Origin: an uncultured Planctomycetales bacterium
GTDB taxonomy: Bacteria; Omnitrophota; Gorgyraeia; Zapsychrales; CAYRXT01
DNA: 62,513 bases
NCBI GenBank assembly: GCA_964428315.1
Contig: CAYRXT010000013.1
Span: forward strand, 1 to 62,513
Reading direction: 5' to 3'
Of this stretch, positions 1 to 51,200 are shown in pieces. Numbering within the stretch: position 1 is the first letter of the stretch; every line of letters begins with the position of its first letter. A program made the position numbers and the translations under genes. The notes beneath the pieces are model-generated. The model did no database searches and was not told the DNA's origin. It saw only the letters and a list, made by a program, of their open reading frames with translations.

Positions 1-220
1 CCGAATTCCGAATTTCAGACGGATCAGAAAAGTTTTTGTCATTGCGAGCGACCAAAGGGAGCGAAGCAATCTCATAAAGATTATTCTGACAAAGATTGCT
101 TCGGCGCTCCTTGCCGTCGCTTCTCGCAAAGACGGAGAGGGTGTACGGTCTAAGGATTCGATATTCAGGATTGGGAATTTATTCGGGATTTGGGATTTGG
201 CATTGGGAATTTTGAAATCC
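1..220 (+). repeat. Palindromic interspersed repeat (PR element), copy 1, truncated by window edge
   Basis: Matches 1681-1900 almost base for base. It contains the hairpin GTCATTGCGAGCGACCAAAGGGAGCGAAGCAATC...GATTGCTTCGGCGCTCCTTGCCGTCGCTTCTCGC. The ends are inverted: CCGAATTCCGAAT vs ATTCGGGATTTGGGATTCGG. Confidence 0.9.
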
Positions 221-27200: not shown

Positions 27201-30200
27201 ATAAATTTTCTGTGATATCCCGAAGAGACAAGGACGGCCTGATCAAGGCAATCGAGCTGGATTACAAGTGGGACAATCTCCGCCCGGCGGACCCCATGCT
27301 GGAAAATCTCGAAGAGTCCTGGAGCCGCGGCTACGAATACTACGCTGAGGGACAATTTGCGCGGGCGGACTCCTGTTTTATGCGGGTTAATTGCATCCTG
27401 TCCAAGACTCCGGAATTGCAGGGTTATATGAATGAAGTCGGGGCCCTGCGGCAGAAAATCAGGGGCCTGATGGACCGGGACGCGAAAACCGTCGTCTATC
27501 AGCGGGGCCCGGTGAGCGGTTCGATCGTGATGGGCTGGGCGCCGCTGACGGCGCGGGCGGCCGCCTGGCTCGCGGGTGATGCGGCGACACAAATCACTCA
27601 GGAGGAAGACCGGATACTTGACATGATCCGCCAGAGACGCAACGAGACGGTGCTGATTATTTATGCCCTGGTTAAATATCAGGGGGACGCGGATAAAGAG
27701 GTGCGGGCAGATATGCTGAAGGCGGAGGGCCATATCCGGTACCTGCTGGATGTCTCCACGGATCAAGAGTACTATGAGCGTCGCGTGCCGGGTGAAAGAG
27801 CCAGGTTAAGGATTATGGCAGCGGCCGCGCGGGCGGTTCAGGATATCAGGAACGTGATTTTGGAGGAAATAAACAAGAGAAGCGGCATCGCAGAGGTCCA
27901 AGCCTGGCTGAAGCGACAAAGAGATATCATCGGCCGCGGGCCCGGGCAGGCGCCGGGCAGAGGCAGTATCGACCCGCGGGAAGAGGAGATCCTGATGGCC
28001 GGCGTTGGTTCCGGACGGCGGGAGTGGTTCAAGACGGCGCTCCGGGATTTTCTCGGCCTTTTTTCGGTGTCCGAGGCGATCGCGGCGGAGGGACAGGCGG
28101 AACGTACTTGGATCCCGACCGGGGTTATGGGCGATCTGAAAGTGAAAATTCAGGACGTGCAATGTATTACGACGGACAGGGCCGTCGCGGTGGGGGGACA
28201 TCGTTTCCTCTCCTGGATGGGCGGGTTTGTCGCGCTTTCGACCGACGGGGGCCGGACTTGGCGGCGGGTCGGCGAAGAAGTCGAAGAAATGATCAACGGC
28301 ATGAACGCCGTCTATTTTACTGATGACCGGAACGGATGGGCAGCTGGAGCGAACGGTGTAATTATTTCTACGGTGGACGGGGGAGAGACATGGGCCCTGG
28401 AAGATGTCCCGACACTTAATGATGACCGGTGGCTCGGGGACGTGTTTGTCCTTTCCGGAGGAAGCGGATGGGCCGTCGGTTATTCAGGGCTTCTCTTCAA
28501 GAGGCGCGAAGGCCGATGGAGGCCACTCGGCGTGGAGGGGCTCACGGAGAACGAACATCTTCTCTCTGTCTTTTTCATGGACGAACAGCGCGGGTGGACG
28601 GTCGGGTTCTCCTCCTCTTATCGGGCCGTCGCGCTCAGAACGGATGACGGCGGACAAACGTGGCGGCATATTCAGGATATCGAAAAACCCGGCATCAGTT
28701 TGTTTTACCGCGTTTTCTTTTCCGACAGCCTCAGGGGCTGGATCATCGGCACAGGGGGATCCCTCTTTAAAACCGTGGACGGCGGAGAGACATGGAACGC
28801 GCAGACCCTGCCCGTTTCATTAAAGGATCGTGATTTTGCCGATATTGGTTTTGTCGATGAAAACACGGGTTATATGGCCGGTAATGCCGTGGCCTTCACG
28901 CGGGACGGGGGAAAGACCTGGACGGGGGAACCGACCGGACACCCCGTTTCTTTGACCGGGCTTTCCGTGTATGACAAGGGGGCACGATGGGGTGCGCTGG
29001 CATCGGATGTCGAAGGATACGTGTGGCGGCTCGTCTGGGGGCCGCCGCAGGCGCCGGGCAGGCCTATTTTTACGGATATAACAACGCAGTCGCTGACTGT
29101 TTCCTGGAGGCGGGATCCTTCCGAACGGACCCTTTTCTATAATGTCTACCGTAAGAAGGATTCGGAGGCCGCCTTTCCCGCAAAGCCGGTCGCAAAGATC
29201 CTTTCCACGGATACTTCTTATGTGGATCAAAATATTCAATGCGGTCAAACGTATGATTATCTTGTTGAGGCCGAAAACAACAGCGGGAAATTCCGGGGAC
29301 CGTCGAACCAGGTGACTGTCGACTGCCTTTGTGATTTGAGCATCAGGATGGAAGATATCCCCGAATGGGTTGAACCTGGAGCGATGGTTTCTCTCGTTTT
29401 CTCGGTTGAAAATCATGGTCCGGCCGATTGTGACACAAGTTTTGCCGTTCAATTTTCTGAAAGCTGCTGGGGGATCAATGAGGTCTTTAAGAGTGAGCGG
29501 GTCTTGGATGTTATCCGTTATGATAGCATAAAAGCCCATCAAACTTTAACGGATACTTTATACTGGTCGGCTTACTGCCAGGGCGATGATTCCTTGGATA
29601 ACGGGTATATATACTATATCGATGCTGAAGCGGATGCGTTTGATGAGGTTAAAGAATTAAAGGAGTCTAATAATCGTGATCTTGATGGAACAAACGTCCG
29701 GTGTCCGTTTCTGCCCGATTTCGCCTTTATCCCGGATAGTTTTCATGTGAACGGCGAATACCTGCATGACAACACTCTAAAGGGCGGGAGCTGTGTGATT
29801 TTTTCCATTCCCATCATTAATCAAGGCAGGATAGGATTAGATTATATATTGGAGATGGATTACATTGAAGTCTTTTGTGAAATTGATTTGAATAATGACG
29901 GCGGCGAGGCATTTCAAAGGGATGTTATTCTCAGTTCTCAGCAGGGAGAAATTTTATTGCCGGACGCGGGGTCACAAATAGACATTGTTTTCAAAAAATG
30001 GATCAATATTCCTCCGGGAACGCATATGGTCGCGTTGGAGATTTATAATGAAAATATCGACGAGTCGGATGTGGAAAACAATTATTTTACGACCTGGATA
30101 AGGGTTGAAAACATGGATAAGGATTTTTCCCTGCCGTTTTTTGATGATTTTGACACGGAAGACGCCCGGCAGTGGTGGCACGCGGACTTGCCCTGGTCGG

Positions 30201-33200
30201 TCGACAACGGCCGTTATGTGCCCGGTCATCCACAATATAATTTTGAAAAAAATGTCGTGTATGCCGGCAGCGAACAATGGACCGATTATGATTACAGGGT
30301 GACGACGGGAGGTCACGACAGTCTGATGGCGGGCCTGATCTTCCGGGACGGCGACGTCCGTCATTACAGGTTGATTTACGTAAAGAGGCCGGCGTCTTCT
30401 TTCGGGCTTTTGAGGTTGTATCAGGGAGAGCATGGATGGCCGACCTGCATAATTTTGAAAGACGCGGTGGTCCCCCCTTGCGGGGACGCGCCGGTTGAAT
30501 TGCGCGTTGTCTGCCGGGATTCCCATATCGTGGCGGGGCTCGACGGAAAGGTCTTTATTGATGTCACCGACGACTGGTCCCCGCGGGGGAACATCGGGTT
30601 GATTAATGTGGGTGATCCTTCCGGGGTATGGTTTGATTCCGTTCGCGTTACCGGTTTTGATGACGGGGCCGCTTCCGCCTTTCCTGATCTGCCGGACAAT
30701 GTGTTTGTCGGGGAAGGGCTTCCCTTTACAATGGACCTGTTTTCTCCCGGGGAATGGCAAGCCAGGTTCCTGGCCGTGGCGGAGGTGGATGCGCCCCTGC
30801 CGGGAGACCTAACCCGGGAAGAAGACAGAATAGCGTGGATCCCGCCCTATACGACCGTCGACTCCGGAGAAACAGAAGGATATCCGTTAAAGGTGCGGTT
30901 CAAAGATCGGCAGACCGGACAGGTCTTAAAACAGGAGACGGTCACGGTTACCGTCGGGGATGTCCCGCGTCAGGCCGCGTCCTTTAAAAATTTCTTGATA
31001 TCCGCCTACAGTTTTCATTTGGAGAGTCCCTATTCCTGCGATCTGGGGCTTAACGTCTGGCACCCCTATGACGCGCGGGACGCCGAACAGATGTTAAAAG
31101 AGGCCAAGGCACTCGGGGTCAAAATCATTATGGGAGGATTTCACTATGACGGCCGATGGATTGCCTGGCATGATGTTTTAACGGTTTATGCTTTGCAGGG
31201 CGTGAAAGGATTAAGGCAGATCGCCCGGCAGACTTTGAGTCGTCTTAATGAACTGGACGCGCTTTCGGAGGTGTTTGCCTTTTATCTGGTGGACGAACCG
31301 GTTTACCGTACCGATAAAGAGAGGGAAGCGGCGCGGATTCTTAACTCCTTCTTGAAAGAATGCGACCCGCAGCGGCCGGGCATTGTTTCTATGGGCGGCT
31401 ACTTGTACAGGACGCACGGCGATCTTGCTTTTGACGACCTGAATCTGAATTATTACTGGAGCAATACGTATCCGGTTTTTGCCGTCACTCAGACAGAAGA
31501 TCATTTTCAGGAAAGGTTAGATATTTACATCATTTCTTTGGAATACGATCAGAAAAGGGCTTCTGAGGCCGGCGTGTTCTTTATGGCCGGCGTGCAGGCG
31601 CACGAATGGGCGCGTTTGCAGCAGGCGCTCAGACAGACGACACCCGGAGAGATGCGTGTTCTGGTCTGGCTGGCGCTTGCTTACGGCGCCAAGGGTATCT
31701 CTTATTTTGCCTATGATTTGAGTCCGCATTATAACGCCCTTTTAGGATTGGACGGAAACCCGACGGAATGTTATTACGAGGCGCAGGATTTGAATTGTAA
31801 TGTTCTTAAACCTCTGGGTTCTGTGTTGATGAAACTGCGATGGACCGGGGCCTGGCATGTCCGCGGGCACAAGAATCTTTCCGGAGAAATGCCGTACGTG
31901 AATACTATAACCGGTACGGACGCGAATATCCAGGTCTCTTCGTTCAAGCATGCCGATGACGGGTCTTATTATATTATGCTGGTTAACAGAAATCCTGATG
32001 AAGTAACGGATGTGACCGTAACCTTTAATTCTTCCGCAGATTTTGTCTGTTTGCAGGATGTCCTTACCGCGCAGCAGATATCGCTTTCGGGGCAAAGGGC
32101 CGAAATTCATCTTGAACCGGGTTCGGGAAGGCTGCTGAAGACGCCGCTTTTTGTCATACCGGTGGAGAAAGTGGAGAAAAAAGACGACGAAGGTGAACTG
32201 CGTTTTCAGCTGCTTCAGAATTTCCCCAACCCCTTTGACGGGTCGACGAAGATCCGCTACACGCTGGAGAAGGCCGGGCGGGTCACCGTCGAGGTTTACA
32301 ACCTGCTGGGGCGCAGCGTCCGCGCCCTGGCGCAGGGCCGTCAGGCCGCCGGGGAACACGCGGTGACGTGGGACGGCCGGGACGACGCCGGGAACGAGGT
32401 CGCGGCCGGCGTGTACCTGTATGTCCTGAAGGTCGACGGCAGGGTTGTCGGCAAAAAGAAGCTGCTCCTCCTCTCGTGCGGGGAGGGGGACAGCGCGGGA
32501 CCCGACATATCCTATGCCGGCGTGAACCTCGCCGGCGTCACGGGCTTCTTTGGCAGGGCCAAGGAGGCGATTGTTAATGTGGGGGCCAAGCTCTGGGATG
32601 CAATCGACTCCAAGGCCATGGCGGAATCTTCTCTGAGGACGGTGACCTCCAAAGGCCCTTCAGGAAAGGTCGTCCCTTGCCCAAGGTTAAAGGAGGCGGT
32701 TCATTATCCACATCAAGATACGATCATTCATGAAGCCGAATATTCTTTACAGAGAAATAACCCCCTGGATTCTTATGTGGTCAGCCGGACCGTCGTCAAT
32801 CAAAAAGAAAGAAGTTATGAGCCCGGCGTGATCGCGGTTAAATTAACCCCTTCCCCCGCCGCTACTCATTACACGACGGCCCAGCCGGTCCGAAATCGTT
32901 TCCCCTCGTCACAAAGAATAGAAACACTTAACAGGACATTCGCCTTGAGCGATCCGCGGCCCTTTTTCTCGAAGGTCATCAGGGAACACATCGCTGGCAG
33001 GAGAGCGGACCGTTCATTGAGGAAAGGCAACGCTGGTCCGGCCCCCTCCGCGCACGATTTGTCGTTATGGTACATGATTGAAGTTCGGCCCGGAGAGGAA
33101 CGGGAGGCTGTCCGCCAGTACGCCGGGGCTCGAGCGATCGAACGCGCCCAGCTGATTCACAGGCACACGCGTTTTTCTCATCTGCCTTACGACACTTATG

Positions 33201-36200
33201 TCAATCCGACGGGAGACGGCGTGACATGGAGCGGGGGAGTGTTCGCGAGAATCGAATTGGAGCTGGAAGATTCATGGTGGGCCAAACGGGGAAAGGTTTT
33301 TGAGGCCAGAGAGTATTTGAGGAATAGAGGCCTGCTCGATGGTTCCCAGACAAAGATTCCCCTTGGCTTTGTCGATACGGGAATTGATCCCGACCATCCC
33401 GATCTTGAAGGAAAAGTCAGGTTTAATCCGGATGAAATTCCCGATAACGGTCTGGATGACGACGGAAACGGTTATATTGATGATTTCTGGGGATTTGATT
33501 TTAAAGGGGGAACATTTAATTCTGGAACCGGGCTTTGGATCAATGACCGGGACGGACCATACGACCTTAGCGGACACGGGACCATGACGGCTGGGATTGC
33601 GGCGGCCATTAACAACAACGCGGAAGGCATTGCCGGGATTGCGGATGGTCTTGTCGAAATTGTCGTGGCCAGGGCCCTGGGGGGAGACGGGGCGACCGAC
33701 ATTATTTTATCCAACGCGCTCATGTATCTTGCCATTCGGGGAGCGCGCATTATTAACAACAGCTGGGGGCCCGCTCAACCTGTCGCGTCGAATCCTCTGA
33801 TCGAAGACGTTATCAAGACGCTCACTTATGATTATGGAATCATGGTGTTCTTTGCCGCCGGCAACAGCGGGGTCAATGTCGAGTACGTTTCTCCGATGAA
33901 TCTGGGCGAAACTTACAGCATTACGGCGACCAATCCTTTTGATCAGTGGGAGCCGTGGTCGCCTTTTGGACACGGGCCGAACTACGGACCGTTGAACGAC
34001 CTGGCCGCTCCGGGATACAAAATCCTTTCCACCGTTCCTCCTGACGCGCGCAATCTTAATCCGTGGCAGAAGGTGCCTTATGGCAGTATGCCCGGGCTGT
34101 ATTATTGGGATAACGGAACTTCCTATTCCTCTCCCATGCCGGCCGCCGCGGCCGCGCTTGTCATAACGGCTAATCCGGAATTAAACAAGCCCACGGTTCT
34201 TAACAACATGACGATTGGTCAGATCCTTATTGATACGGCCGATTCCCTTGACGGCGAAAACTACGCCGGCACCGGGATCATCAATATGCTTAAGGCTGTC
34301 AAAAAAGATCCCGGGTCAGTTCTTCCCGCGAGAATCACGTGCCCCGGGCCGGGAGAGGTCGTTTCAGGACCGCTCGAGCTGACCGGGACAGCGGCAGGAG
34401 ACCTTTTTGAAAGCTACAGCTTATATGTTAACACCGGAGACTCATGGGAGATGATCGGCCAGACGCAAAGGGATCCCGTGGTCAACGGAGCGCTGCTTGG
34501 CTGGGACTCGGGCATGCTTTCCGACGGACGCTATCCCCTGAAGCTTGTCGTGAAAGGCGGGGACGGAAATCACAGTGAGCATCAGACGGTCTTGCAGATT
34601 CAGAACAATTATATCAGTTATCCTCAAGCGGAAGATATCTTCAACAGAAAAGATAAAATTATTATCCGGGGAAAGGTTTCTCCGGTCGATTTTGTATCTT
34701 ACAGGATTGAATATAAAGAGACGAATCAGAACGGCTGGAAGACGGAAGGGATGGTCTTACTCGATGGAGGAACGGCTGCGCCGGGCGATGATCGTCTGGC
34801 CGAATGGGATATTTCCCGCATACCCTTTGGATTATATACCCTTCGCATGAGTGTCGTCACCCGCGATGATTTAGGAACGGAGGTCGAGACGGTTATCAAG
34901 GTCCCGAGGGTGTTGATTGAAACGGCAGATGAAATACCGTCTCAGGCGGGCTGGCCCAAAAGCACGCCGACTCAATTCATGACCGCCGCCGACATAAACA
35001 ACGACGGCTATAATGAGATTCTATTCTATTCGACAGATAAGGGGAGAGGAAACGGCATTCACATGTACCTCCACGACGGCAGACCGGTGCCGGGATGGTT
35101 TGATGCGCAGGGCCGGCCCGTCCACCGCGTTGGTGCTATTCCCAAGTTTGCCGTGGGCGATGTCAACGGAGATCAGAGAGTCGAAGTGGTCGGATTTTCG
35201 GTCCATGACAGCCTTTTTGTCTTTAACGCAGAAGGAGCCCTGCTGGACAAAAAGTTCGTGGGGCCGGGTCAACGATCGAATATGCCTCACGCGGCGGCCG
35301 TCTTGACGGATCAGACCGGAGACGGAATTTTGGATATTGTTATTGCCTCGGTTGATGCCAAGCTTTATACCTTCCAGTGTATCGGTAATACGATCCAGGA
35401 GCCCTGGACTCATCTGTCGCTGCCATATGCCGAGCTTCAAGCAGCGACTCCGGCCGTGGGGAATCTGGACAACGAAGGCCTGGAAGAAATTGTTCTCAGG
35501 CCGCATAACGGACGGATTTTTGTGGTGCGCCGGGACACAATTGTGACCTCGAACGCCCAGGCCGGCCATGGAGCCGCAGCTTCGCCTGTCTTGGCCGATC
35601 TGGATAATGACGGAAAGCCAGAAATAATTCTTCCTTTAGGGCTTGAAGGCAACGGCGGGGTTATCGTTTATCAGTCTATGGACGATAAATTGCACACTAT
35701 GCCGGGATGGCCTCAATACACAAATGATCCGGGGCACACGTACACGAACGAGATTTATGCGCATCCGGCCGTCGGTTTGATCAACAGCGATCAGCATCCG
35801 GATATTCTCTGCGTTTCTTTATTTAATGAACTCTACGGTTGGAGTCATGAGGGTTACCGGATCTGGGAGGATCCTCTTCAAATCAACGGATTGGGAGGGA
35901 CGCGGGATAATCCCGGCGCTTCTTATTATAACACGCCCCTGGTGGGCGATCTTGACGGGGACAGCGTCCCGGATATCGTCGTTGGAGTAAATAATGACCT
36001 TTATATCTTCAGCTGGGTTCCGCGGGAAGGGGCGAGAGTGTCTTACGTCTTCCACCTCGAGAATTCGGGATCTTTCTTCTATGGAGGGATTATCGATGAT
36101 ATCGACAAAGACGGGGATACCGATCTTCTCATCAGCGCTATGGACGGCGTGTACGCCTGGGATTTTCCCGGCGCGTATAATCCTGAGACAGTTCACTGGG

Positions 36201-39200
36201 GGGAGTGGCGCAACGGCCCGAGAAATACAGGCCTTTACAGAGCCCCCGACTTACCGACACATGTTGTTCCGGAACAATCGGCTCCGCAAACATTCGCTCT
36301 TTCGCAGAATTATCCCAATCCGTTTAGTCTTTCCACAACCATCCGGTATAACGTTGCCGAGCCGGGCCCAGTGCGGCTGGTGGTTTATAACATTAACGGG
36401 CGGAAGGTTCGGACATTGGTCGATGAGTTACAGGAAGCCGGCACGAAGAGCGTGGCGTGGGACGGCCGGGACGACGCCGGGAACGAGGTCGCGGCCGGCG
36501 TTTACCTGTATGTCCTGAAGGTCGACGGCAGGGTTGTCGGCAAAAAGAAGCTGCTCCTCCTCGCGTGCGGGGAGGGGGGGGATGATGAGGATCCTCTGAC
36601 GCAAGGCCGGGAGAAACCGGCGGCGCGGTTTGCGTCTCCCGGAGGGATCGCGTGCATAGGCGTCTCGGTGCGGATGATGCTGTTGCGGCTGGCAAACAGC
36701 GGCAGGCTTAACGTTTTTGACGCGAAGCCGGCTAATGGGGAAAATGGGGGCCGTCCCTATTTATCCCATTTATCAGGGCCGGTTGCTCTGAACAAAAAGA
36801 GAACGTCAGCTTTTAAGGAGTTGGATGAAATCTTCGGCAGGGATCCCGGCGCCTTTGAGGATAGCCTGGAAGGTTCCCGTTTTAATGATTTTCGATCCGT
36901 GGAGAGGGATGACGCATCTGCGCCGGAGGTCGCTTTTATGCCGCATGACGACATGAGAGCCTTTTTGACGGAGGATAATGAAGCCGGCCCTGCCCAGGCA
37001 CGCGACGATCTGTTTACCGGAAACCCGCGGCAGGCGGGTCATACGGAGACCTCGACGTCTTCCACCATGACATCGATGTCTGCGGACGGGACAGGAAGCC
37101 CGTCCATGCGAAGAGATTCGACATACAGCGCTATGGCTTCCTTGATATTGGCCAGGCCTTCGGCAACGGTCTCGCCCTGGCTTGCGCAGCCGGACAGCGA
37201 GGGAACAAAGAGGCTGTATCCGCCTTCAGGATCTTTCTCGATAACAACCTTGAATCGTTTGACCATTTTTTCACCTCCGTTAAAAAATATACTACGATTG
37301 TCCGGGGAAGTCAATTCATACACTTCTCAGACACGGATAGTCCATTCGGGAAACAGGGGCCGCCCCTGTATAGCTTGCGACGCGTCGGAGAAAGACCTGT
37401 CGCCGGAGGCGTTGGCGGGGTACGTGGATTATTTCGGCGGGATCGGGGAATTCACGCCCGTCGAGGATATCTATGGACGGCTGGAGGTCCGGGAGGCCCT
37501 GTCCGCCGCCGGCCTCTTCGCCGGCGACGCGCGGGCGCGCCTGCGGGGGAAGGGCGTGCGGTTCGTGCGTCCGCCTTCAAGCTGGAACCTGAAGTGGGAA
37601 TACGGCGCGGCGGTCTATGTCGAAAATGAAAACGACATTTACATCATCCTTCCGGAGGGTACGTCCTCGCTGGTCATCGCCCACGAGATCTGGGCCGCCC
37701 TTAATCTTGATTCCGGACACGAAGACAATCCCTTTGTCATCAAAGAGCCGGGATTCCGGAAGACGCTGGTCTCGATGCTCCCGTGGGTGAAACCCGATCC
37801 CCTTGACGGCGTTGAGATCGTCAACGACTACACGCGCAAACTCATAGAAGAGAAAAGGGACTACGGCCGGGCGCTCGGGGTCTCGCTCCCGGCCTACGAA
37901 CGGTCGCAGGACGAAAAGGTCCTGCGCCTCCTCATCCCCGCGCTGGTCTTGACCAACAATATCTCGGAGGCCGAAAGCCTCTACCTGCGCGCTGCGCCCG
38001 AGGACCGGGCCGAGGTCATCGATAACCTGGCCCGCGCCCTTGTCTGGTCAGTGACCGACTACAAGAGGGGATATGAGTTAATGGCCCTTTTCCTCGCGAC
38101 GGGGGATTCGCCCGCGTCTTACATGCGTTTCATGGGCCGATTTATGAAGACGTTTTTTATCCGGTATTTCAACGGGCCGGCTCACGACGTCCATTTGGAG
38201 AATCTCGCGGCGTTTAAGGCGGGCCGGCTCCCCGCGGCGCTGACACGGGACTACGGTCCGGTCGGATCCTTCCGGGAGGGCTTCGACCCCGGCGTCTTTC
38301 CGGAGATGACGTTCGCCGTGCCCGCGGACATCGGTTCCATGAACGCGCTGGGCAGGGCCCTGTTCGCGGCGGTCCGGGACGACGCCCGGCCTCGCAAGTT
38401 CGTACGGATCGACGGCCAGGAGGGGCTGGAACTCTCCATCCTGGAAGACGACCGGGTCCATGCCGAGATGTACGGCCGCATCCACGCCTTCCTGGAAGAC
38501 GCCCGGTATCACGGTACTATCGTACAGGGCAAACACCTGCCGACGGCCCTGAACGGCAGCCGCAGATTCCTCGGCAACGATTTCCGGGGCGAGGACCTGG
38601 CCGCCTATTTCAACAAGGCGGCCGCAGACACGGTGCCCCTCGATGCGTATGAGAGGTTCCTGCTGGATTATCTTCTGAATGAAAGAGGCGTCCTGGCCCT
38701 GAACGATGACGGCGCGTACGAAAGCCGCAAGAAGTATTTCCTCGCCACGGTCTGCATGGACGGGTTTTACAAGGATTACATGAAGGAGCATCTCTTCGGC
38801 CATGAACTGCGGCATTACATGCTTTACATGTCTCCCTCTTACGAAAAAGACCTGTGGGCTGTCTGGAAAGAGGACCTCAAGGAGGAAGAAAGGGAGGTGG
38901 TGGAAGACTTCTTCCACGGCCGGGGCTACGACAAGGGTAACGGGTGGCTGATGGTCAAGGAGCTCCCGGCGTGGATCTACCATCCGGATTTTATGAAGGC
39001 GACCAAGATCCGGCCTCAGGTGGTCGAAAAACTCAAGGAGAGGGAGGACGCCGCCTTCAGGGAGATCTTTCTTAGCCGGCATGGCTCCAGCGGCGAAGAG
39101 ATGTTTGGCGAGGCCACCCGGCCGCGCGCGCGCGAAGGTTCGGCTCTCCCCGTCATCGCCGGGCCGAAGCACTGCGTCGTCAATGCGGTCTTCATGGCGG

Positions 39201-42200
39201 TGAACCTGATCCGGTCGGCGCTGTCCCGGGGAAATAGTGAAAACGGGGACGGAACCTGTTTATCGAAATCCTCCAACTTCAGCGCCGCCGAGATGGACGA
39301 GGTAGCGCGGATGCTGGAGGAGGGTGACAAGGAGGCGGCGGCGCGCGCCTGGAAGTACGCTTCGATGATGCGGGCGCTGGAGCATCAGACAGGCGGCAAG
39401 GTGATCGAGCTGGAAGGGAACCTTATTTCCTGCAATCCGCAATTAAGCACGCCCGGCGGAGGGGCCTTTGACGTGAAGAAGATCCTCGCGGTCCTGGAGG
39501 TGAGCCCGGATTACACTATTACCAGCCGCACATATCAGGATGTTCATAACCTGATCGCCGCGCTTTATGTGATTAAAAGGCTCGAGTATTATGACAAAAC
39601 AAAAGACAAACTTGCGCATGCCCGGGATGTTATCGGCTCGTGGGATGAGCTCTGGGCGCCGCTGATTGCCGGGCGGATATATTCGCCGGCGCAAGTCGCT
39701 GACATCCTGCGCGCGACCGCGCGTTTATCCCGGCTTAGGGGCGTGCCCGGCAGCGAAGAGGCGAGAAGTGTGCTGTTCCGGGCCCTGCAAACGGCGCCGA
39801 CGGCAGAGGATTCAGTGGAGACGGTGCGACGGTTATTCACGGGATGGGATTTGAAGCGTAAACTTCAACTGGCCTTGTCGTCGATGCGGGAGGTTGCGCG
39901 CGAACTGGAATTGTTCAGTATGGATTTATGGGGACCTGAACGCAAGGTGAAAGCGGTTTTGTTTTCGGCCTGGGCTTTCAGTCATAGATCGTCGCGGTCT
40001 CTGCTTTTTTCGTGGGATCTCGAGGAGAAGCTCGGGCTTGAAAATGACAGCCAATACCTGCTCCTGTCACATATTTTCGCTGCGCCGCTGGCCTCGGAGA
40101 CTTCTTTGCGCCAGATATTTGAGGGAGCCCGGGGCAAAGACGCGGCCGAAGAAATCCTGGGACAGGGATGTGTTCTCGCTATGCCTTATGCGGGAATCGT
40201 TCTTTGCCGTTTCCTTGGGGCCTTTGATATTGTCATCAAACTGATGCGGCTTCAGACGCACTGCTGTTTGATGGTTATGAAGGATGGATATGCTTTTATT
40301 TTTGACAGCGGTTATTCGACGGCCAGCCGGTCTTTCCGGTTAGAGGACTATACGGAAAGGGACGGTGAAACTTACCATTTTAAAGAGGCGTTTTTCCGCG
40401 ACGTCTGTCCCGAGGGGTGGAAACACACACATTTTAAATGGTTTAAATTGTACGATATTTACGGGTTCCCCGGATTTATACAAAACAATATAGATCTCAA
40501 TATATATAAAACAAAAACAGAAACAGAAACAAAAACAAAAACAGGTGACAGTCACCAAACAGGTGACAGTCACCGTCCGGGGACAGGGATGACCGGGCCC
40601 GGCGAGGCCACCCGGCCGCGCGCGCGCGAAGGTTCGGCTCTCCCCGTCATCGCCGGGCCGAAGCACTGCGTCGTCAATGCGGTCTTCATGGCGGTGAACC
40701 TGATCCGGTCGGCGCTGTCCCGGGGAAATAGTGAAAACGGGGACGGAACCTGTTTATCAGTTTTGAACAGCCGCCTTCTCTTTGGTGATGCGTTGCGAAA
40801 TCCATTTCTGCGGGAGTTCTCCGGGGGAGAGGCCGGCCTTGCAGGCCAGCTTGTCAAGGATCCTGATCTGCCGGGGCTTAAGGTCGAGGACGATGTGTTT
40901 GGGGCGGGGGGGCCGCGCATTTCTTGCGGGCCTGATGTCCTCCGGGAAATCCGTTATGCTGTGGGTATCCCAGAAGGCCCGCTCTTCACGGACAGATTTG
41001 AATTCCGGGGTTTTTCCGGTCTTTTTCATCCCTCTTTATATTTTGTGGATTCTATAACGACCTTTTCTGATGACAGCCAAATGACCGGTCAGATCTTGTC
41101 GAGCCACTCGGGAAAGGAAGTCGCGGAGGAGTTCGTTGATTTCGCTGATGGTAAGCAGATGGACCCTCAGGAGAATAATCCCGCAATTAGACGGGGGAGG
41201 GTACCTGAGGATATTGCTAAAATCGGTATCTCTGGTAATGAGTATACAGGAATCACGTTGAATCCTTTCGAAAATTTCTTCATCCGTGGACTGCGGATTG
41301 ATATCCCGGATATCAACAGCATCATGCCCCATAGTTTCGCACGTACTTTTAATGGACCGGGGGCAATCGGCATCGATCAGAAATCTCATAGTTTAGGAAG
41401 GTTGTTTGATAAGTTCTTGTTCGTCAGTGAGCATTGCGGCGAACAGAAGGCAGGCATGAATATCTTCCATAGTAATGGGAGCGTATTCTCTAACAACCTC
41501 TTCGAAGGGCATCCCGCAGGCAAGAGCTTCGAGAACTACATGAACAGGTATGCGTGTGGCTTTAATACATGGCCGACCATGCTGAACCGCGGGGTCGGTA
41601 GTGATGTGTTTCTCAATAAGTCTTTTATTGACCATTTTTATCCTCTTTTAATGATTCCAAATATAACATGGAATAATAATATTGTCAATTTAGAAGGGAT
41701 TTTTGATAGAAATAAAGGTGACTGTCACCGTAACCGTAAACGGCCCTACTCTCTCCTCACCGTGCCGGAGGTGTATGGGGATAATGGAGAAGAGGGAGAC
41801 GGGGGAGAAGGGGGCCGCGGGCCGCGTCCTCCGCGGCAGGGTTCTTCTGAATCTTCATTAACGCGGCCCGCGGCCCTTGACAGCTTCACGGCCGTGTGGA
41901 ACGGGGACGCATACGGGTATGAAACAGGCAGCAGCGTCCGGCTGTACGGGGACATGGAAGACCATCTGAAACAGGCCGGGCTCCTGCTGAGCGAAAGCGG
42001 CCGCGACCCGCCGGAGCGGATCACCGTTATCATCACCGCCGACGCCGAACTCTTGGGCGTTGACCCGCGGACCGGCCGGACCTACGTCATGGCCAGCCGG
42101 ACCGATCCCGACGCACGTTTCCTCATCTTCATCCACCCCTACTATTTCACCCTGCGGGAAAACATAGACGGGGAACTCGCAAGCAACCGTAACGAGTCCC

Positions 42201-45200
42201 TGAGAGGTATCTACGACGCGTACACACGTGTCTTTGAGGTACGGTTTTTGCCCCGTGCCGACTTCGCCCGTCTCCTGATGATTGAGATGCCGGCGCACGA
42301 GTTCCTGCATTTCGCGGGGATGGACGAGGCGCAGGCGCTGGAGGCCACCTTCGTCTTGAGGGAGAGACTGGTGGAGGAGAGAAGGGCGGAGGACGTCCAA
42401 TGGTATATCCGGGCGGTTAAACAACTCCAGCGGCCTGATACGCGTGAGGAGGGCCGCGTTGCTTTAATGCGCATGAGGCATAAATCTGTTGTGCCCTCCC
42501 TCCGTCTCAAAGCGGATTCGGTCCTCTGCGCGATCCCGTTCTCTCCGGACTATCCTGTGGGCTTGCGCAGGGCCGTTGTTCAGGTTGTAGAAGACGGATT
42601 GACGCGCCGGCCTTATGCCGGACGTTACGGAGAAAGAGATATCCGGCTTCTTGAGAAATTGTCCTTCGCGGAGGCGGCCGGATGGAAAGTCCGCAAAGCG
42701 GCTCTGGAAACACTAATAGGCATAGCCCGCAAACAAAACCTGGTGGTCCCCGGGCACAGAAGGACAGCCCTGGAGGGCCTGGAGGAATTCATCATATCCA
42801 TCGATGACGATAAGTTGCGACATCTTGTTTTGAAAGCGATCACCATGAATGCTTTCCGTCCATCGCTTCCGGAAAACATAAACCGAGAGAATCTTGAGAG
42901 TCTGTTGCGTCTCTATGAAGCCCTTGGGGGGTCCCTCAAGATGATTGTCCTTGAACAGCTCAAGACGGTTTCGTCTCATGTGCGTTATAACGAAGTTAAA
43001 GAGGCCCTGTTCCGGTATTTTGCCGGTCAGTTGGACGCGCGTTCTGTTCCGGACGGCGGCATGGAGACCGTCTGCGCCCTGCTCGCGCGGACGATGAGCG
43101 TCTCGTCGACAATGCTCGCGCTCGGCGACAGCCTGATCAGCGCGGACAACCAGTATTATTACGCCGTGGACCTCGGGTTCGTTCCCGGTGAAGTCCGGAC
43201 CGTTTATGAGGACGGTTTTATCCTGGCCGCGGAGCCGGACGCGGGACTGCGGCTCGGGCTGGCCTTTGCCGTGGCCAAATACCTTAACGACCACGGCAAG
43301 GAAGTCTGTCCGTCCAACATCAGTGCCTTAGGAGGGTTTGTGGCCGGTCTGAGGAAGGAATTCTCGGAAAGAGAATACATTTCACCTGAGACAGATTATA
43401 TGCTGAATATTTACGACCGTTTGGATCGCGAAGTCTGTTTTAGGGATATAGCCGGGACTTGGGCCGGCCTTTCGGCCGGGTTCATCGGGGATTCCGTGAA
43501 GATAAAGCTTGCCAGCACGGGCGGCGGGCGGGATTTGCGCAGATCCCTGAATGAGGCCGGGCGGAAGGCCCGGGAGGGAAAAATCTTTGCGGGAGTGTTT
43601 GGCCACGGTTCCGGAGGGAAAGCAGGGGCCGTGAAGAGTCTGTTTGGCAGGCTGTTTCTGGACCCGACATGGCGGGAGGCCATTGAGATCAATCAAGATG
43701 TGATCCCGGCCGGCCGGATTATGAAAGGACTGATGAGCGGAACAGCCGCTGATTCGAATAAGAAGGTGCACCTGTCGGCATGTTTTGCCGAAGACAACGC
43801 CGTGGCCTGTGCCTGGTGGATTGCCCGGCGTTTCGATGTGAGTGCGTACAGGCCTGTTGACGCCCTGATAAGCGTAACCAGTTTGAGGCAGAAGGCGCTG
43901 CCCGGTATCTATGAGGAGGCCGCGCGCTCTTTTATCGAGGATAACCTCAAGGACGGCCGAGTAAAGAATCCTAAAGGACAGTGGACGGGGCGGGATTATT
44001 TCGAGCTTGAAAAACGGCTGATAAGGCAAAGACGCTATAAGCAGAAACCGTCAATCATCATCGGGCTGACGCCCCCCCAGCGGGAGGAGCTGATAAAGAT
44101 CGAGGAGACATTGATCGACCGAGGGACGCCCAGGCCCGCGCCCCGCGTGAAGCAGTTCGGCGCCTACCCGGAGACCATCCCCGACGGGTTCATGAAGATC
44201 TCTGGTAATGTGGACAAAGACGACAGGGACAAAGGGGCCAGTCCCCGAAAGGGGACTGGCCCCTTTGATGGCCCCTTCAAGGGGACTGCGCCCGTTGCGT
44301 CCCGGTTCACCGCCAGCATCGCCGGCTCCCATGCCCTTATCTTCAACTGGCTGGCGTCGGCGCTGGGCCGGGGAGGGGAAGCGGATGTCCCGGCGCGCGC
44401 GAAAGGCGCGAGCGCGGTCGAGGACCTTTACGTCGACGACAACGCGGCCGAAAACGGGGACGGGCTGAGCGCGCGGACGGCCTTCCTGACGGTCGGTGAG
44501 GCCACCGCCTTTATCGATTCTCTGCGGCAGGCCGGGGAAGCGCAGAGAGTGACGATCCATGTTGCGGCGGGTACCTACCGGGAGCAGGTCGTTCTCGGGG
44601 ACAACACGACCCTGCGGGGCGAAGGCCGGGACGCGACGGAAATTTATCTTCCGATCAAATGGGGCGCCATGGTGCGCGTCACGGGCGTTGACGTGCGGAT
44701 CGAGGATATCGAGATTGAGATTAAACCCGTTATGGGCGGCCCGGCGGGGCTCCATGTCGAAATGCCCATGGGTCTGAACTGCGAGGTCAAAAACAGCCGG
44801 ATCGTGGCGTATATGTCCTGTGGGACGGCGGTGGTTCTTTCGGGCAGTACCGGGCTGTTTGAAGGCAATGAGGTCATCGGCTTTGACTTCGGGCTTATCG
44901 TGAATGGCCATGGATGGCTGGTAAAGGACAACTATTTTGCAGGCTCGACGTTTGAGGAAATAAGGGTGTACGGCCAAACTCTGGTCCAAGACAACACGAT
45001 TGACGGGGAGATCGCCGTTTTCACGACGCCGCAGGGCACGCCGGCCCTGCTGAAGCGGATCGAAGCCGATCCCACCCTTTTCGGCATGGACAAGCTGACG
45101 GACAAGTTTTATTACAACGAGATTTTGCGGGGCAGGTGCGCACCCGATATGCCGGACGCCCTTTCTTCCGGGTATAACGCCGAGATCAAAGGTAACCTGC

Positions 45201-48200
45201 TCAATGGCTACCTTAACCTGGCCTCGGGAAACAATTATGTCCATCATAACGTCATTCGTAACGCAGGGAAAGCCGTGGACGTGGGCTGGTGGGCGTGGAC
45301 ATGCCACGGCAACAGGATCGAATCGAACCGGATCATCGACTGCGATGCCGGCATCCTCATCCACAAGGGCCGGGGCCACGTCGTCGAGAGGAACCTTATC
45401 GCGGTTTTCGATTACGGTGTCAATATTCGCAAAGAAAACATCGAAGGGCCGACCGTGCCCGGGGACGCGCAATTTGTGAACAACACCATCGTATCGACCG
45501 GAGAGGGCGGCCGTGGCGGGATCATCGTCTGGTCAAATGGCGGCGGCAACAGTGTCACGAACAATATCATCGTCATCCATGATCCGCAGACCGGGCGTTG
45601 TGTGTCTAACAATACAGGCAGGCCTTCGGATGTGAATGTGGCCTATAATGATCTGTACCGGATTGGCTTTTCAGACGAGCCGGATCCTTACCGTGATACT
45701 TACACAAACGAGGCCGGCAATATCTACGCCGACCCGCTGTTCACGGTGGGGAGCGGTTACCGTCTTGATGCGGCTTCGCCCTGTATAGATGCGGGCAACC
45801 CGGCGATGACCGATCCCGGGACTTTTTCCCGGGCGGATATGGGCTGCTACCCCTACAGGGTTCCGCGTGAGCCGTACAGCTTAGCCATCGCTTCCATAGG
45901 GGATCAAAGGGAACGCCGGCCGTTTTGGATCAGCTTGACCGCCATTGACAGCCTGGGCTTGCCTGTAACGGGCTTTACGGGCAGGGTGGATGTGACGGAT
46001 CTGACCGGCACCCTCAGGCCGCGGATGAGCGAACCGTTCATCGACGGCCGGCTACGCCAGCAGGTGGTTGTGGACAGTGCGGCCAGGCAGGACCGGATTA
46101 TCGTGGCTTTCTCCGGCGGTAACAAGACGTTTATGTCCGAACCATTTGACGTCTTGGATGTCTACGATTTATGCCATGTTTATCTGGACGGTTCTGCCGC
46201 GTCCGGCGGCGACGGGTCGCTGGCGCGGCCTTATGACAGATTCAACAATGCCATAGCAGGTGCGGCCAAACTGGCTCTTGACTATGAGTACAGGGAGGAG
46301 GTTACGATCCATGTGTTCCCGGGAAGGTACGAGATATCCGGTTCGCTCAATATCCCTCCGATGGTCAATCTTGTTTCCTTCAGCGGGGAAGGGGCGGGTA
46401 CCGGTGATGTGGAGATCGTTACGAGCGGCTTCCCGTCAACGGGACGGCACCGTGCAGTGGAAAAATACGGTACGGGCGTTGTTCGCGGTCTTGTTTTTCT
46501 TAACGGAGACAGCGAGAAGAACGTCATAGCGCTTGAGCTCGACGCGTACGGACGGGAGACCGGGGACAGGACGACCGTGGTGGAAGACTGCCTTTTCGAG
46601 GGGTTCACGGAAAGCATCCTAGCCTATCTTAAGACCGAAGGGGACATCCTGATACAGAGAAATACGATAAGATCAAGGTGGTTTGATATCACGTATATCG
46701 GATACTCGTCTGACGAGGGAGCTCTTGTCGTGAGAAGAAATATTCTCCAGGGTGCCCACGCCGGATTTTTATATGAAGGCCGTGACGAAGAGATCCCGCA
46801 GACGGAGGTCTTGATCCACAACAATACGTTTTACGGCGAGGACGGATGGCGGGGTATTAATATCTCCGATCCCATGCCGTATGCCACCAGGATCGAGAAT
46901 AATATCCTCTGCGGATGGGAGACTCCGGTGCGGGATCCTCACTTGGTCTCCGAGGGCGGCGTTAACTACAACCTGTTTTTCGACAACACGTACGATTATG
47001 CGGGCGGTGGGACCGGCAACATCACGGGTGATCCGTTATTTGTATATGAGAAAGGGAGCGATTTCCGTCTCATGCCGCTTTCGCCCTGTATCGACGCCGG
47101 CAATCCCGATCCGCAGTACAGAGACCCCGACGGGACGCGCAACGACATCGGCCGGCATGACTGCGCGTCGCGTTACGGCTATTTCGTCGTCGATTCTATA
47201 GCGGCACAGGCGGCGGGCCGGGACTTCCGGGTCAACATCACGGCCTACAAGAGAGGGGACGCAGGGGTCTGGAAAGATTTCAACGGGCAGGCGCGGATCC
47301 TGGACCGCACCGGTGACCTTACCTGTCTTCAGCCTGTATATTTCGAGGACGGAAGATGGACGGGGACGGTCCGCGTCGAGGAACACCTGGTCGACAACAT
47401 GCTTCGGGTGGAATCTCAGGAGGGCGTGCTGGGGTATTCTAACCTTTTTAGCGTCTACGATCCGCAATGGATGACGGTTTACGTCGACACAAACGGAACA
47501 GGAGGCGCGAGCGGCCGCGCCGACGATCCGTTTTCTTCGGTCATCGAGGCCGTGTCAGCGGCCAGCACGCGGGCCGAAGAATATCATATTCCCGTCACCG
47601 TCCGCGTGAGGGGCGGCAGGTACGATATCGTTCCTCCGGCGGGAGAGTTTTACGGGTGCGTTCTCGCGGACGGCGTCAGCCTGGAAGGCGATCCTGAGGA
47701 CAGGCCCGTGTTTGTTGCCCGGCACTCGCCTTCTCAACATCTGTTGATCAGTGCGTATCTGCTGAAGAAGGGGGCGGGCAACATCAAGGACATCATTCTC
47801 TTTAACGGGGCTGACCAGGCCAATTCTTCCGGCATCAGGACGGACAGCCGCGCCCGAACGGTGATACGTAACGTTCGGGTGGAAGACTTTGCGTCGCCTA
47901 TCAGCGCGTGGCGTTTCGCGAAGGTGACGGTGGACCACTGCCTGATCGCACGCTCTCCGGTAACGGCGGGCCTGACGGCTGGCAGCGGGGACACCCTCGT
48001 CGTTCGCAACACCACCTTCGCGGACACCCGGGGCGCGGTATGCTGGCGCAGCGCCGGGGTTTACAGCGAGTTCCTTAATAATATTGTCGTGAACCGCCAG
48101 GAAGACATCTTTGTCGATCCTTCCGGTGACGCGCGGATTAGCTTCAACTGTACATATCACCTGGATTCGGGGACTGGTTACACCGGAGGGACAGGGAACA

Positions 48201-51200
48201 TCGTCCTTGATCCAGCCCTGGATGCGGAGTGGCGCCTGACCGCGGATTCGCCGTGGCAGTGCAGGCAGGGATGGCATGCCATGGGCGATACCGCCGCATA
48301 CTGGGGCTGTTATCCCTTTGTCATGACTGAGACCGAACCCGCCGTGTCTGTGCGGATTCCCGAGGAAGTTATCCTTGAGCAGAACCACCCGAACCCCTTC
48401 AGGCCGGACACGCGCATCCGTTTCGGCCTGCCCGTAGCCGGGCGGGTGACCCTGGAGATCTTCAACCTGCTGGGGCAGGAAGTCAGGACGCTCGTGGCCG
48501 GCGGGGACTATCCGGCGGGTTACCATGCCGTGACGTGGGACGGCCGCGATAACAACGGCGCGGCGGTCAGCGCGGGGATTTATTTCGCGCGCCTGCGGTT
48601 CAGGGACAAGGTGTTGACCTCCAAGATGATGATGACGCGCCTCGAGCGGGACAACGACAAAGACGACAAAGACAAAGGGGCCAGTCCCCGAAAGGGGACT
48701 GGCCCCTTTGATGGCCCCTTCAAGGGGACTGCGCCCGTTGCGTCCCGGTTCACCGCCAGCATCGCCGGCTCCCATGCCCTTATCTTCAACTGGCTGGCGT
48801 CGGCGCTGGGCCGGGGAGGGGAAGCGGATGTCCCGGCGCGCGCGAAAGGCGCGAGCGCTAGGGAAGACCTTTACACCGATGCCGACGCGGCAGGTTTCCT
48901 GGAGCTGCTTTCCGCCGGAAATTTCTACACGACGGAAGAGGCCGCCGAAATCATACGTGCCACCGACAGCCTTTCAAGCGCGCACGGCGCGCCCGATCCC
49001 GATTCTCTGAACGGGCGGATCAGGGAAGAATTGAAGACGGCGCGCACGGCCGAGGACTCTCTAAAAGCCGTATGGCAGGCTATTGAGTCGCAAGGGCTGT
49101 CCGAAAAACTCCGTTTCCAGAACGACGAAGAATATCTGCTGCTGTCGCGGGTGTTCGCCGCGCCGCTGGTCCGGGAGGAACCCTTGAAGGGTATGTTTTC
49201 CGGGCGTCCGGATGACGGGATGTTTGGGCGGCTGCTGACAGCCCGAATGCGTTCCGGAATGGCAATCAACATAGGATTAGAGGAGGCGATCCAGGGCGCC
49301 AAGCTGTCGTTTAGTGAAGGCTGTGTCTTAAATATGTTTTACGTGGCGGTCACGCTGCCGCGCCTTACCAAGGGGACAGGCCTTTATGTCCGCGTCATGG
49401 AACTGCCCGGGCATGTCTGCTTTATGCTTATGAAGGGAAAACGCGCGTTCATCTTTGACACTTCTGGGGGAATCAGCGAAGGACCGTTCCGTCTCGGACG
49501 CTATACGCAAAAGGAAGGTTCCACGTATTATTTCAACGCGGCGTTTTTTGAGGAGATTTTTCCCGAAGAATGGAAACCTCACCGAAAAGATTACACGCGA
49601 TTCCGGCTGTATGACGTCGGGAGCTTTCCCCTCTTTGGCATGAATAATATCGGCGCGATATACGACTTGATCGGTGAAAAACACCTCGCCAGGGAATATT
49701 GGGAAGGGATTATTTCAAAAGACCTCGGCCAGGTCCTTGCCCTGGAAAATCTGGGTTCCGTTTGTTTTGAGTCGGCGGCGTACGCCAAGGCCGCTGAACA
49801 CTGGTCACAGGCCCTGTCTTTGGATCCCCGGAGCGGACGGATCCGTAATAACCTGAAGAGCGCACTGCTGGGGCAGGCCTCCCGGTCCCTCCAGGAAGGA
49901 AACCATTCGCAGGCGATTGAAGCCTTTTGGCGGGTACTGGAAATCGAGCCAGGGGATTTTCAGGCCGGTATCGGATTGTCCCTGGCTTATCTTGGGCAGT
50001 ACCGGGGCGTTATCCTGTTTGTGTGTTACGGCGTTTACCTTGCGGCCGCGCTGTACTTCATTGTCTTCTGGCTCGCCCTTGCGTTCAGGCGGGCGCTCCG
50101 CGCCCTGCGCGGACTCCGGGGGAAAGGGCAAGTTGCCGATAAAGAGGCAAAAACCGGCCATCCCAACGAAGCCCAAGACATATATAACGAATGGCAGGCT
50201 CAATACGGTAATAAAGCGGATGTCATCATTTCATCTTTTGGAGAATTGGTTCTTGCCAAAGAAGGCGCCAAGCGATTTATTGAGAGAGTTATTGAGATTT
50301 TTGCGAAAGATATCAATCCCCAAGCAGAGGTGAAAGATACAATTGAGAAAGTGAAAGATACTCGTTTTAGAGAATTTATTTGGTGGCTTCTTTCGATCGT
50401 TTCCTACGGGGAACCATGGAATATGTTTATTTCTTGTTTTGCAAACGAAGATCTTTTGCGCGTCGTTATTAAACATCGTGTTCCTGCAAAGAAATTTATA
50501 GATGCCTCAGATATCTATGACAAGGCAGGGCAATCAGGCGGGAAGGCTTACCATAAAGAGTATAGAGCATTGAGAGAGAAAAGGGGAGAAGAGCCTATAC
50601 CGAAGGTCTTTGTTGGTTTTCATTCGGATTTTGAAGCTATCAATTGGAATGCAAATCTTATCAGAGGAATCGAGGAACCTTCAGGGATCAAAGGGATTAA
50701 AGGATATAAGTTGACAATTATTAAAGCAATGGTTAAAGGTGATCTTCAATATTTGTTTATCAAAACAAAGGACCAAAAATTGATTAAGGATCTTTGGGAC
50801 ATTTTTAATTTGGATGAGTGGACGAAGACAGAATTATTAAAAAACAATTTTGATAAGTTTTTGCCCGTCTATTTGCTGCAGGTTAAAGAGGTAAAGAATG
50901 TTGATAGGAAAGGGATTTTTATTTATGAATACCAGCCTTTAGTAAGGGTTCCAAGGGATGCCAGTCAAGACTTGAAGGATTTTATGGGTGCTGTGGAGAA
51001 GTACGTTTCATTTGTTGCTAGTCATTATCCTGAAAAGTTAATCAGGGATAATGGTAAGATTTCTGAAATTCTTTTCCCCACCACGGGACATTTCATGATA
51101 AATGAAGGAATACTTTTTCAGCCATCCCTGTTCTTGAACAGGTATGGGTATTGGTTGAAGGATAGAGGTTATAGATTGGCAGTGCTTGATGAGCCGATTA

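Follow-up and report, generated by a model that had tools for sequence, protein, structure and literature searches.

Complete C-terminal sorting domains inside a 62-kb stop-free reading frame of an Omnitrophota contig

We analysed a stretch of 62,513 nucleotides, hereafter the window, from an uncultured Planctomycetales bacterium with an Omnitrophota lineage in GTDB (assembly GCA_964428315.1, contig CAYRXT010000013.1, positions 1 to 62,513 of the forward strand). The window is occupied by a single open reading frame (ORF) on the plus strand, and inside this ORF lie three complete copies of a sorting domain (CTD) that otherwise forms the extreme C-terminus of stand-alone proteins, each followed by thousands of further sense codons. 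We consider it fairly probable that the frame is a genuine giant mosaic gene, grown by in-frame annexation and translated continuously into a membrane-anchored protein in which the CTDs are fossils.

A single stop-free frame across the window

The ORF scan of the window returned the following frame:

197..62464, plus strand: giant stop-free ORF, 20,755 codons, open at the 5' edge, characterised by stop counts and codon usage

It contains no stop codon, against 842 and 883 in the two remaining plus frames. The frame is also without a stop back to nucleotide 2, so the gene probably extends past the 5' end of the window, and five stops are packed into the last 50 nt. The contig starts within a four-copy repeat and has therefore probably been cut short, so that the full gene could be longer. 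In every 1.5-kb block the GC content by codon position followed the coding order GC3 > GC1 > GC2. A codon-usage score, for which the stretches of the ORF with Pfam support served as training set, gave this frame the top rank in 404 of 414 sliding windows; the ten others fell at the window start, in copies of an element resembling repetitive extragenic palindromes or miniature inverted-repeat transposable elements (REP/MITE), and in two toxin-antitoxin (TA) regions. Across eight spacers that look non-coding, dinucleotide shuffles led us to expect ~55 giant-frame stops and none was seen, with normal stop numbers in the other frames of the same spacers. These counts exclude a chance origin: the lack of stops goes far past what chance would allow and extends even over DNA unlike domain-coding sequence, and by these statistical signs the open frame itself is under selection.

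An alternative genetic code was rejected, as stops are absent from the frame altogether rather than reassigned, and the antisense genes described below end with ordinary TGA or TAA, as does the giant ORF. We also rejected the idea that the frame is a shadow cast by genes on the minus strand: it is the plus frame that has the Pfam domains and the codon-usage signal, and six long antisense ORFs have no Pfam match. Rfam and tRNA scans of the window gave no matches.

Along the ORF the GC content drops to 44% at 50-52 kb and to 45.5% at 2-4 kb and rises to 63% at 16-18 kb, and this swing within one ORF suggests that its pieces are of different origins.

Sorting domains inside the frame

Searches with hidden Markov models (HMMs) recovered the three sorting domains that an earlier note, made from the letters alone, had placed in the frame, and a local profile added the remains of a fourth:

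32219..32470, plus strand: CTD1, complete type-A sorting domain (NFPNPF...KKKLLLL), by profile match and alignment
36308..36559, plus strand: CTD2, complete type-A sorting domain (NYPNPF...KKKLLLL), by profile match and alignment
48383..48640, plus strand: CTD3, complete type-A sorting domain (NHPNPF...SKMMMTR), by profile match and alignment
26039..26212, plus strand: decayed fourth CTD, partial (profile positions 25-82), ending ...AKVVSFLS, by local profile

CTD1, CTD2 and CTD3 scored 50.3, 40.7 and 38.8 bits with PF13860 FlgD_ig (cutoff 27) and 38.5, 32.7 and 22.4 bits with TIGR04183 (cutoff 23), where CTD3 is marginal. The local profile gave 107-111 bits for each, a score that is partly circular since this profile was built from 11 stand-alone C-termini together with the window's own three CTD copies. 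All three match the 11 stand-alone cargo C-termini end to end, the last strand (KKKLLLL, SKMMMTR) included. At the position of the relatives' stop the window CTDs have a sense codon (TCG after CTD1), and the giant frame goes on for 9,997, 8,634 and 4,607 codons beyond CTD1, CTD2 and CTD3, respectively.

That this domain type normally sits at the extreme C-terminus, as the note had assumed, was upheld by its position in homologues. In 389 retrieved relatives we found 239 full-length CTD matches, 234 of them terminal and 5 internal; among the 114 best library matches to CTD3, the CTD was at the C-terminus in 99 and internal in 15, and 14 of those 15 are tandem Ig-repeat proteins with ~30% identity, a different use of the fold. 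Judged by sequence, each of the three CTDs is a complete copy of a domain that otherwise forms the very end of a protein, and their internal position would make them fossil C-termini. Equally accurate was the description of what comes behind them: a junk-like spacer after CTD1, an antisense HicB/HicA pair after CTD2 and a hairpin after CTD3, and never a stop.

The last 127 nt of CTD1 are 98% identical to the corresponding part of CTD2 (32363-32489 and 36452-36578), including five codons past the end of the domain. The junction (32459-32489 and 36548-36578) reads KKKLLLL[S/A]CGEGG. In this order, a positive stretch, leucines and [S/A]-Cys look like a lipoprotein signal peptide, though a very short one, complete with lipobox; the likeness may be coincidental or may mark a site of processing. 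The junction bears on a rival explanation in which the frame is translated once and the product is then cut just after each CTD, either by host peptidases or by modules that it carries itself (S8, HExxH, Cys-His or CHAT-like), so that each released piece would regain a C-terminal CTD and be sorted like ordinary cargo of a type IX secretion system (T9SS). Such a polyprotein would sit well with the preservation of the whole terminal strand of the CTDs, which has not decayed, with S8 catalytic motifs readable in the translation, and with the Cys, His and Asp that are invariant in the four paralogs of the X domain described below; the CTD1/CTD2 junction could be a cut site of the signal-peptidase-II type, and gingipain polyproteins supply a precedent from a T9SS context (PMC5445135). 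However, the CTD3 junction has no lipobox-like motif, four leucines fall short of what a normal lipoprotein signal peptide has, no recognisable signal peptides are left on the modules, the fourth CTD has decayed and the structure model of the X domain is uninformative, and we hold a polyprotein to be unlikely, if worth serious attention. Exact junction peptides (e.g. ...VVGKKKLLLLSCGEGDSAGPDISYAGVNLAGVTGFFGR) would allow proteomics to tell a single giant protein from a polyprotein.

A broader version of the polyprotein takes giant genes to be whole stretches of genome turned into one ORF, in which genes, spacers, REP/MITE hairpins and even antisense operons that still work have been brought into one phase and freed of stops; the product would be cut after each CTD (e.g. 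between KKKLLLL and [S/A]C), its pieces exported as T9SS cargo, and the antisense TA genes would be functional and expressed. Taken as a whole we find this quite doubtful.

Modules upstream of the sorting domains

Upstream of the three CTDs the translation resolves into modules with recognisable families:

28235..32218, plus strand: module 1, by Pfam/HMM matches
28235-29026, plus strand: BNR/Ycf48-like propeller of module 1, solid match
29051-29320, plus strand: fn3 of module 1, solid match
29333-29674, plus strand: CARDB of module 1, solid match
30497-30649, plus strand: LamG-like region of module 1 (PF06439, E = 0.02), weak
31442-31726, plus strand: GH42-like region of module 1 (E = 0.002), weak
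33362..36307, plus strand: module 2, S8 and FG-GAP
33362-34249, plus strand: Peptidase_S8 subtilase of module 2, 111 bits, with D, H and S motifs readable in the translation
~34991-35992, plus strand: FG-GAP repeats of module 2, 78 bits
44449..48382, plus strand: module 3, three right-handed beta-helix units, by Pfam matches and three beta-helix starts in the translation
45182-45571, plus strand: NosD of module 3, Pfam match
47492-48199, plus strand: Beta_helix and DUF1565 of module 3, Pfam matches

The architectures proposed earlier are thus sound for the propeller, fn3, CARDB, S8, FG-GAP and the three beta-helix units, and weak for the LamG-like and GH42-like parts. The relatives of module 1 are stand-alone propeller-fn3-CARDB-CTD proteins with at most 36% identity. 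Module 2 has stand-alone relatives of similar length (P0005 and P0007, 1,214-1,215 aa) that combine S8, FG-GAP and CTD, start with a signal peptide and read ...RKMxLL[KR]-stop directly behind the CTD. The sequence evidence supports the view that the modules are former independent secreted-protein genes. We found no in-frame ribosome-binding site (RBS) with a start codon upstream of modules 1-3, and no intact signal peptide or uninterrupted hydrophobic stretch there either, only degenerate signal-like stretches (no dedicated predictor was used). The note had read the frame as a string of complete secreted-protein genes; former gene modules with stand-alone relatives are indeed there, and 'complete' is overstated, as no start codons or working signal peptides survive.

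The modules might still be separate genes with internal starts, ended by hairpins or non-canonical termination, the open frame being incidental. A perfect 17-bp hairpin with a predicted energy of -39 kcal/mol lies 33 nt past CTD3 and occurs again before module 3, and a few in-frame RBS-plus-ATG sites exist. Yet there are just five such sites in 62 kb, none of them at the start of module 1, 2 or 3; an incidental open frame is statistically excluded; and non-stop mRNAs are normally tagged for degradation (trans-translation). We give this explanation almost no credence.

Spacers and repeats between the modules

The DNA between the modules holds the following elements:

32471..32830, plus strand: spacer 1, junk-like translation, no giant-frame stop and four stops in each other plus frame
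32544-32568, plus strand: 11-bp stem-loop in spacer 1, by fold prediction
44213..44448, plus strand: repeat D9, copy 1, directly before module 3, with a 17-bp hairpin (44230-44267) and a degenerate signal-peptide-like stretch
48656..48891, plus strand: repeat D9, copy 2, 95% identical to copy 1, hairpin at 48673-48710, followed by an X-TPR module
1..220, plus strand: REP/MITE-like element of 220 nt with a long hairpin, further copies at 1681-1900, 4936-5155 and 8782-9001
235..519, plus strand, different frame: 94-codon ORF with a strong RBS (AAGGAGGTG-N4-ATG), also a gene call on Logan contig SRR7048225_372977

D9 is a 236-nt cassette that stands both before module 3 and after CTD3 and runs on into the degenerate signal-peptide-like stretch. 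The four REP/MITE-like copies, all in the first 17 kb, are 97-98% identical and share one orientation and one phase. Their REP-like core of 29 nt, TGCGAGCGACCARNGGGAGCGAAGCAATC, lies in window 33-130 with copies at 1713, 4968, 8814, 12819 and 12947, and matches exactly in at least 119 loci, in hosts that include metagenome-assembled genomes of Planctomycetia, Chloroflexota, Omnitrophota, Micavibrio, Patescibacteria and Melainabacteria. So wide a spread over phyla is striking for a non-coding element, and with exact matches in this many phyla the core is uninformative as a taxonomic marker.

The 94-codon ORF at 235-519 is protein-like and has no Pfam match. No giant-frame stop interrupts it (shuffle P = 0.002), which implies either that the giant gene starts later, near nucleotide 584, or that the two are overlapping genes on the sense strand.

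Other repeats were noted along the frame. Palindromes of the sequence GGTGACAGTCACC, some in tandem, occur at 40539-40574, 41717-41729 and 58847-58879; they form stable folds (-20.7 kcal/mol, z = -5.7), and their in-frame translation gives TGDSH or GDCH repeats. A perfect in-frame tandem duplication of 132 nt (44 codons) at 26366-26629 has identical copies and is presumably very recent for that reason. A 158-nt repeat is 100% identical between 39107-39264 and 40601-40758; its second copy ends exactly at the end of the CopG-like gene in the third antisense cassette, and the repeat may be the flank of a mobile unit.

Antisense toxin-antitoxin cassettes

Three cassettes of the TA type run antisense to the giant frame:

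36806..37314, minus strand: HicB/HicA cassette behind CTD2, with HicB at 37266..37039 and HicA at 37042..36806, overlapping by 4 nt
40757..41688, minus strand: DUF433/DUF5615/CopG-like cassette, with DUF433 at 41635..41393, DUF5615 (PIN-like) at 41389..41036 and a CopG-antitoxin-like gene at 41029..40757
9094..9781, minus strand: PIN_3 cassette, with the PIN_3 toxin at 9507..9094, a small upstream ORF at 9724..9500 and a promoter-like site at 9781-9753

The ORFs of the cassettes are intact, with normal stops, and their Pfam scores are all above cutoff (HicA 60.9, HicB 43.9, PIN_3 83.1, DUF5615 74.7 and DUF433 70.8 bits); the small partner of PIN_3 had no Pfam match. The HicB/HicA cassette carries a GGAGGTG RBS and a promoter-like TTGACT-17-TATATT at 37314-37286, and the DUF433 cassette a near-consensus, promoter-like TTGACA-17-TG-TATATT at 41688-41660 and an RBS before its first gene. 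Overall, the promoter-like sites of the three cassettes match 9, 10 and 11 of 12 positions, and an RBS is present in two. Exact-protein look-ups of HicA, PIN, DUF5615 and DUF433 returned no record.

None of the three cassettes brings a stop into the giant frame. For the seven antisense genes, synonymous-codon shuffles gave an expectation of 6.3 giant-frame stops and a probability of 0.0006 for none; of the three antisense phases, five of these genes use the one with the fewest stops. The PIN cassette has a copy at 4018-4498 from which 285 nt and 93 nt are missing, each length being a multiple of 3. It is rare to see long genes intact on the antisense strand of an ORF that is kept open, as they are in the window.

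Duplications, selection and topology

All 34 internal direct duplications are in phase and none is inverted, and every module shares that phase, just as the earlier note had observed for the modules. Domain-like paralogs have ratios of nonsynonymous to synonymous substitution (dN/dS) of 0.3-0.5. The N-terminal repeat units combine a nearly neutral sequence with a strictly kept frame, a combination that would also fit a frame kept open for the sake of translation itself: it would serve ribosome traffic and not a product, for example by shielding a very long transcript from Rho-dependent termination, and much of the polypeptide would be functionless filler. The junk-like translation of the REP/MITE elements and antisense cassettes agrees with this, as does the strict phase and stop-freeness of the N-terminal units. 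Ordinary operons, however, do without such a device, the domain-like modules are under purifying selection, and the hydrophobic segments are clustered, not random; to our knowledge there is no precedent, and we consider the explanation very unlikely.

The frame also contains four paralogs of an X domain:

18254-19216, plus strand: X domain
19223-20191, plus strand: X domain
39614-40546, plus strand: X domain, paralog C
48884-49831, plus strand: X domain

These are 35-38% identical, have the motifs G-C, H-x-C and F-D, in which Cys, His and Asp never vary, and usually have TPRs next downstream. A word-index search of 5.8 billion proteins with the copy at 48.9k gave no homolog, and the AlphaFold model is of low confidence (pLDDT, the confidence score of the model, 50), too low to support a fold search. 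TPR is the most repeated family in the frame, with many copies, among about a dozen unrelated families (S8, BNR, fn3, CARDB, FG-GAP, beta-helix, FlgD_ig, TPR, Sigma70, FBPase and RelA_SpoT).

A crude hydropathy criterion (Kyte-Doolittle >= 1.7) yielded ~54 hydrophobic segments in two clusters, ~30 before aa 5853 and ~24 after aa 16604. Between them, aa 5854-16604 (nt 17.7k-50.0k) are effectively free of such segments, with one weak segment barely above threshold at aa 13325, and this stretch of ~10,700 residues holds all the CTD modules. Sigma-70 r2/r4 (13750-14430), FBPase-like (~52700-53540) and RelA/SpoT-like (~56900-57300) domains, which are of cytoplasm type and have low Pfam scores of 26-43 bits, all lie in the giant frame within the two regions rich in hydrophobic segments. 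The earlier note had confined the phenomenon to 28108-48860 and to secreted proteins; this limit does not hold, since the same frame spans 62 kb and includes these three domains and the hydrophobic segments. Its suggestion of a recent series of fusions fits some junctions, such as the near-identical CTD1/CTD2 ends, and does not fit the decayed fourth CTD.

Support for the assembly

An exact-protein look-up of the 94-codon ORF led to Logan contig SRR7048225_372977 (run SRR7048225, 1,434 nt), which is 100% identical to window 168-1601 and includes 478 stop-free codons of the giant frame, partly junk-like. Window 168-1601 is therefore natural environmental DNA that was assembled independently. 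A literature search for run SRR7048225 gave no paper. A machine-generated or synthetic sequence had been suspected from the exact repeats, the weak Pfam scores and the lack of a self-match in the protein database, and the identical contig rejects that origin for 168-1601.

A mis-assembly or construct, through chimeric repeat joins or protein-guided assembly, would mean that the true genome has separate genes with stops. The window start does lie in the four-copy repeat, an assembler might be led astray by the many repeats with 95-100% identity, the window protein was missing from the collections scanned, and the GC content varies along the ORF as described. But mis-joins cannot erase ~860 expected stops, deplete giant-frame stops at synonymous sites of antisense genes or turn the indels between repeat copies into multiples of 3. 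Moreover, the Logan contig is identical over its whole length, and the CTD-to-spacer transitions lie in unique sequence or are present in both repeat copies. Stop depletion, synonymous-site depletion, duplications that keep phase and deletions in multiples of 3 together rule out the assembler as their source, and we regard an artefact as highly improbable.

Proposed origin of the giant gene

The giant mosaic gene that we favour would have arisen as neighbouring genes, spacers and inserted mobile DNA were annexed into a single stop-free phase. Ribosomes would run straight through the whole frame, and the product would be a giant membrane-anchored protein whose hydrophobic-free stretch of ~10,700 residues probably lies outside the cytoplasm. 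That stretch would string together propeller/glycosidase-like, subtilase/FG-GAP, HExxH, Cys-His and beta-helix modules of hydrolase or adhesin type. At most, the internal CTDs would today have a role as Ig-like spacers, unless they are exposed again by proteolysis.

Several points weigh against such a gene. The second assembly covers just 1.4 kb of the 62.5 kb, the contig begins inside a repeat, and the joins that span repeats rest on one assembly. The window protein and its fragments were not found in protein databases, GTDB representative genomes or JGI metagenomes; the best relatives of modules 1 and 2 in word-index protein searches reach ~36% identity at most, the best protein matches are spread over many phyla, and the window carries no marker gene. 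Large parts of the predicted product are a junk-like translation, which is odd for a functional protein, and its N-terminal repeat units are near neutral (dN/dS 0.80-0.85). It is hard to see how a sigma factor built into a giant membrane protein would act, and strong hairpins and convergent promoters within an ORF should hinder its expression.

Comparison with known systems

The type-A CTD cargo of the T9SS (FCB group, that is, Fibrobacterota, Chlorobiota and Bacteroidota) shares with the window the order of module and CTD, the length of module 2 and the complete CTD motifs, which are recognised by the type-A models TIGR04183, PF18962 and PF13860 (CTD3 being marginal on TIGR04183). The window differs in that its CTDs are internal and that no start codon or working signal peptide is left. 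P0379, a metagenomic protein of 416 aa, comes close: a complete CTD (...AKLLLLK) is read into a signal-peptide-like stretch, which looks like the signal peptide of the next gene, a small module and a second CTD, the same event at the scale of two genes. It has a single junction, however, may be a sequencing error, and is the sole such case among the 239 full-length CTD matches.

Gingipain polyproteins are known from a T9SS context (PMC5445135). The gingipains of Porphyromonas gingivalis (RgpA, Kgp and HagA) resemble the window in having several functional units per precursor, an on-board protease and that secretion system. They have a single CTD at the very end, measure ~1,700 aa and contain no foreign genes or intergenic relics, unlike the window. 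Rickettsia palindromic elements are in-frame palindromic elements within genes, and the window likewise has hairpin repeats inside an ORF in its sole stop-free phase. Unlike those elements, the window repeats accompany whole antisense operons and former gene ends, and their copies may have spread by segmental duplication and not by insertion.

Giant genes of 10,000 to 147,000 codons have recently been reported in uncultivated bacteria, and a published catalogue of Omnitrophota giant proteins holds 916. The giant multi-transmembrane 'multi-enzyme' proteins of Omnitrophota tile many unrelated Pfam families (10.1101/2023.11.21.568195; 10.64898/2026.06.07.730766). The window shares with them an ORF of >10,000 codons, many unrelated Pfam families in one polypeptide, a mixture of cytoplasm-type enzyme and surface-type domains, dozens of hydrophobic segments, long Pfam-free stretches and few sequence relatives. 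'Archaeovorins' and 'multi-enzyme metabolic cluster' giants are the types described by West-Roberts et al. 2023 (10.1101/2023.11.21.568195) and Nielsen & Lui 2026 (10.64898/2026.06.07.730766), respectively. As in an Archaeovorin, the giant ORF has numerous transmembrane regions, by our crude count of 54 Kyte-Doolittle segments; unlike one, it gave no match to SecA-DEAD, HEAT or dockerin domains (Pfam, whole ORF, E <= 0.01), and given the absence of SecA-DEAD and HEAT domains we do not file it there. It has the features of the Nielsen & Lui multi-enzyme class: a length of no less than 10,000 aa, many distinct Pfam families of which none dominates, and transmembrane or signal-peptide content.

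We found no literature on internal CTDs or TA cassettes inside giant ORFs, and in the accessible text of the two giant-gene preprints we found no report of internal T9SS-type CTDs, intact antisense TA operons or REP/MITE hairpins, nor a treatment of the origin of such genes or of whether each makes a single protein. Giant mosaic genes are already known; preserved seams of this kind were not found in the literature that could be searched. Such seams are kept in the window: complete CTDs where genes once ended, a hairpin that resembles a terminator, a leader cassette used a second time, intergenic repeats and three autonomous antisense TA operons. With them, in-frame annexation of neighbouring DNA as the origin becomes directly testable, and the window may show how bacterial giant genes are built.

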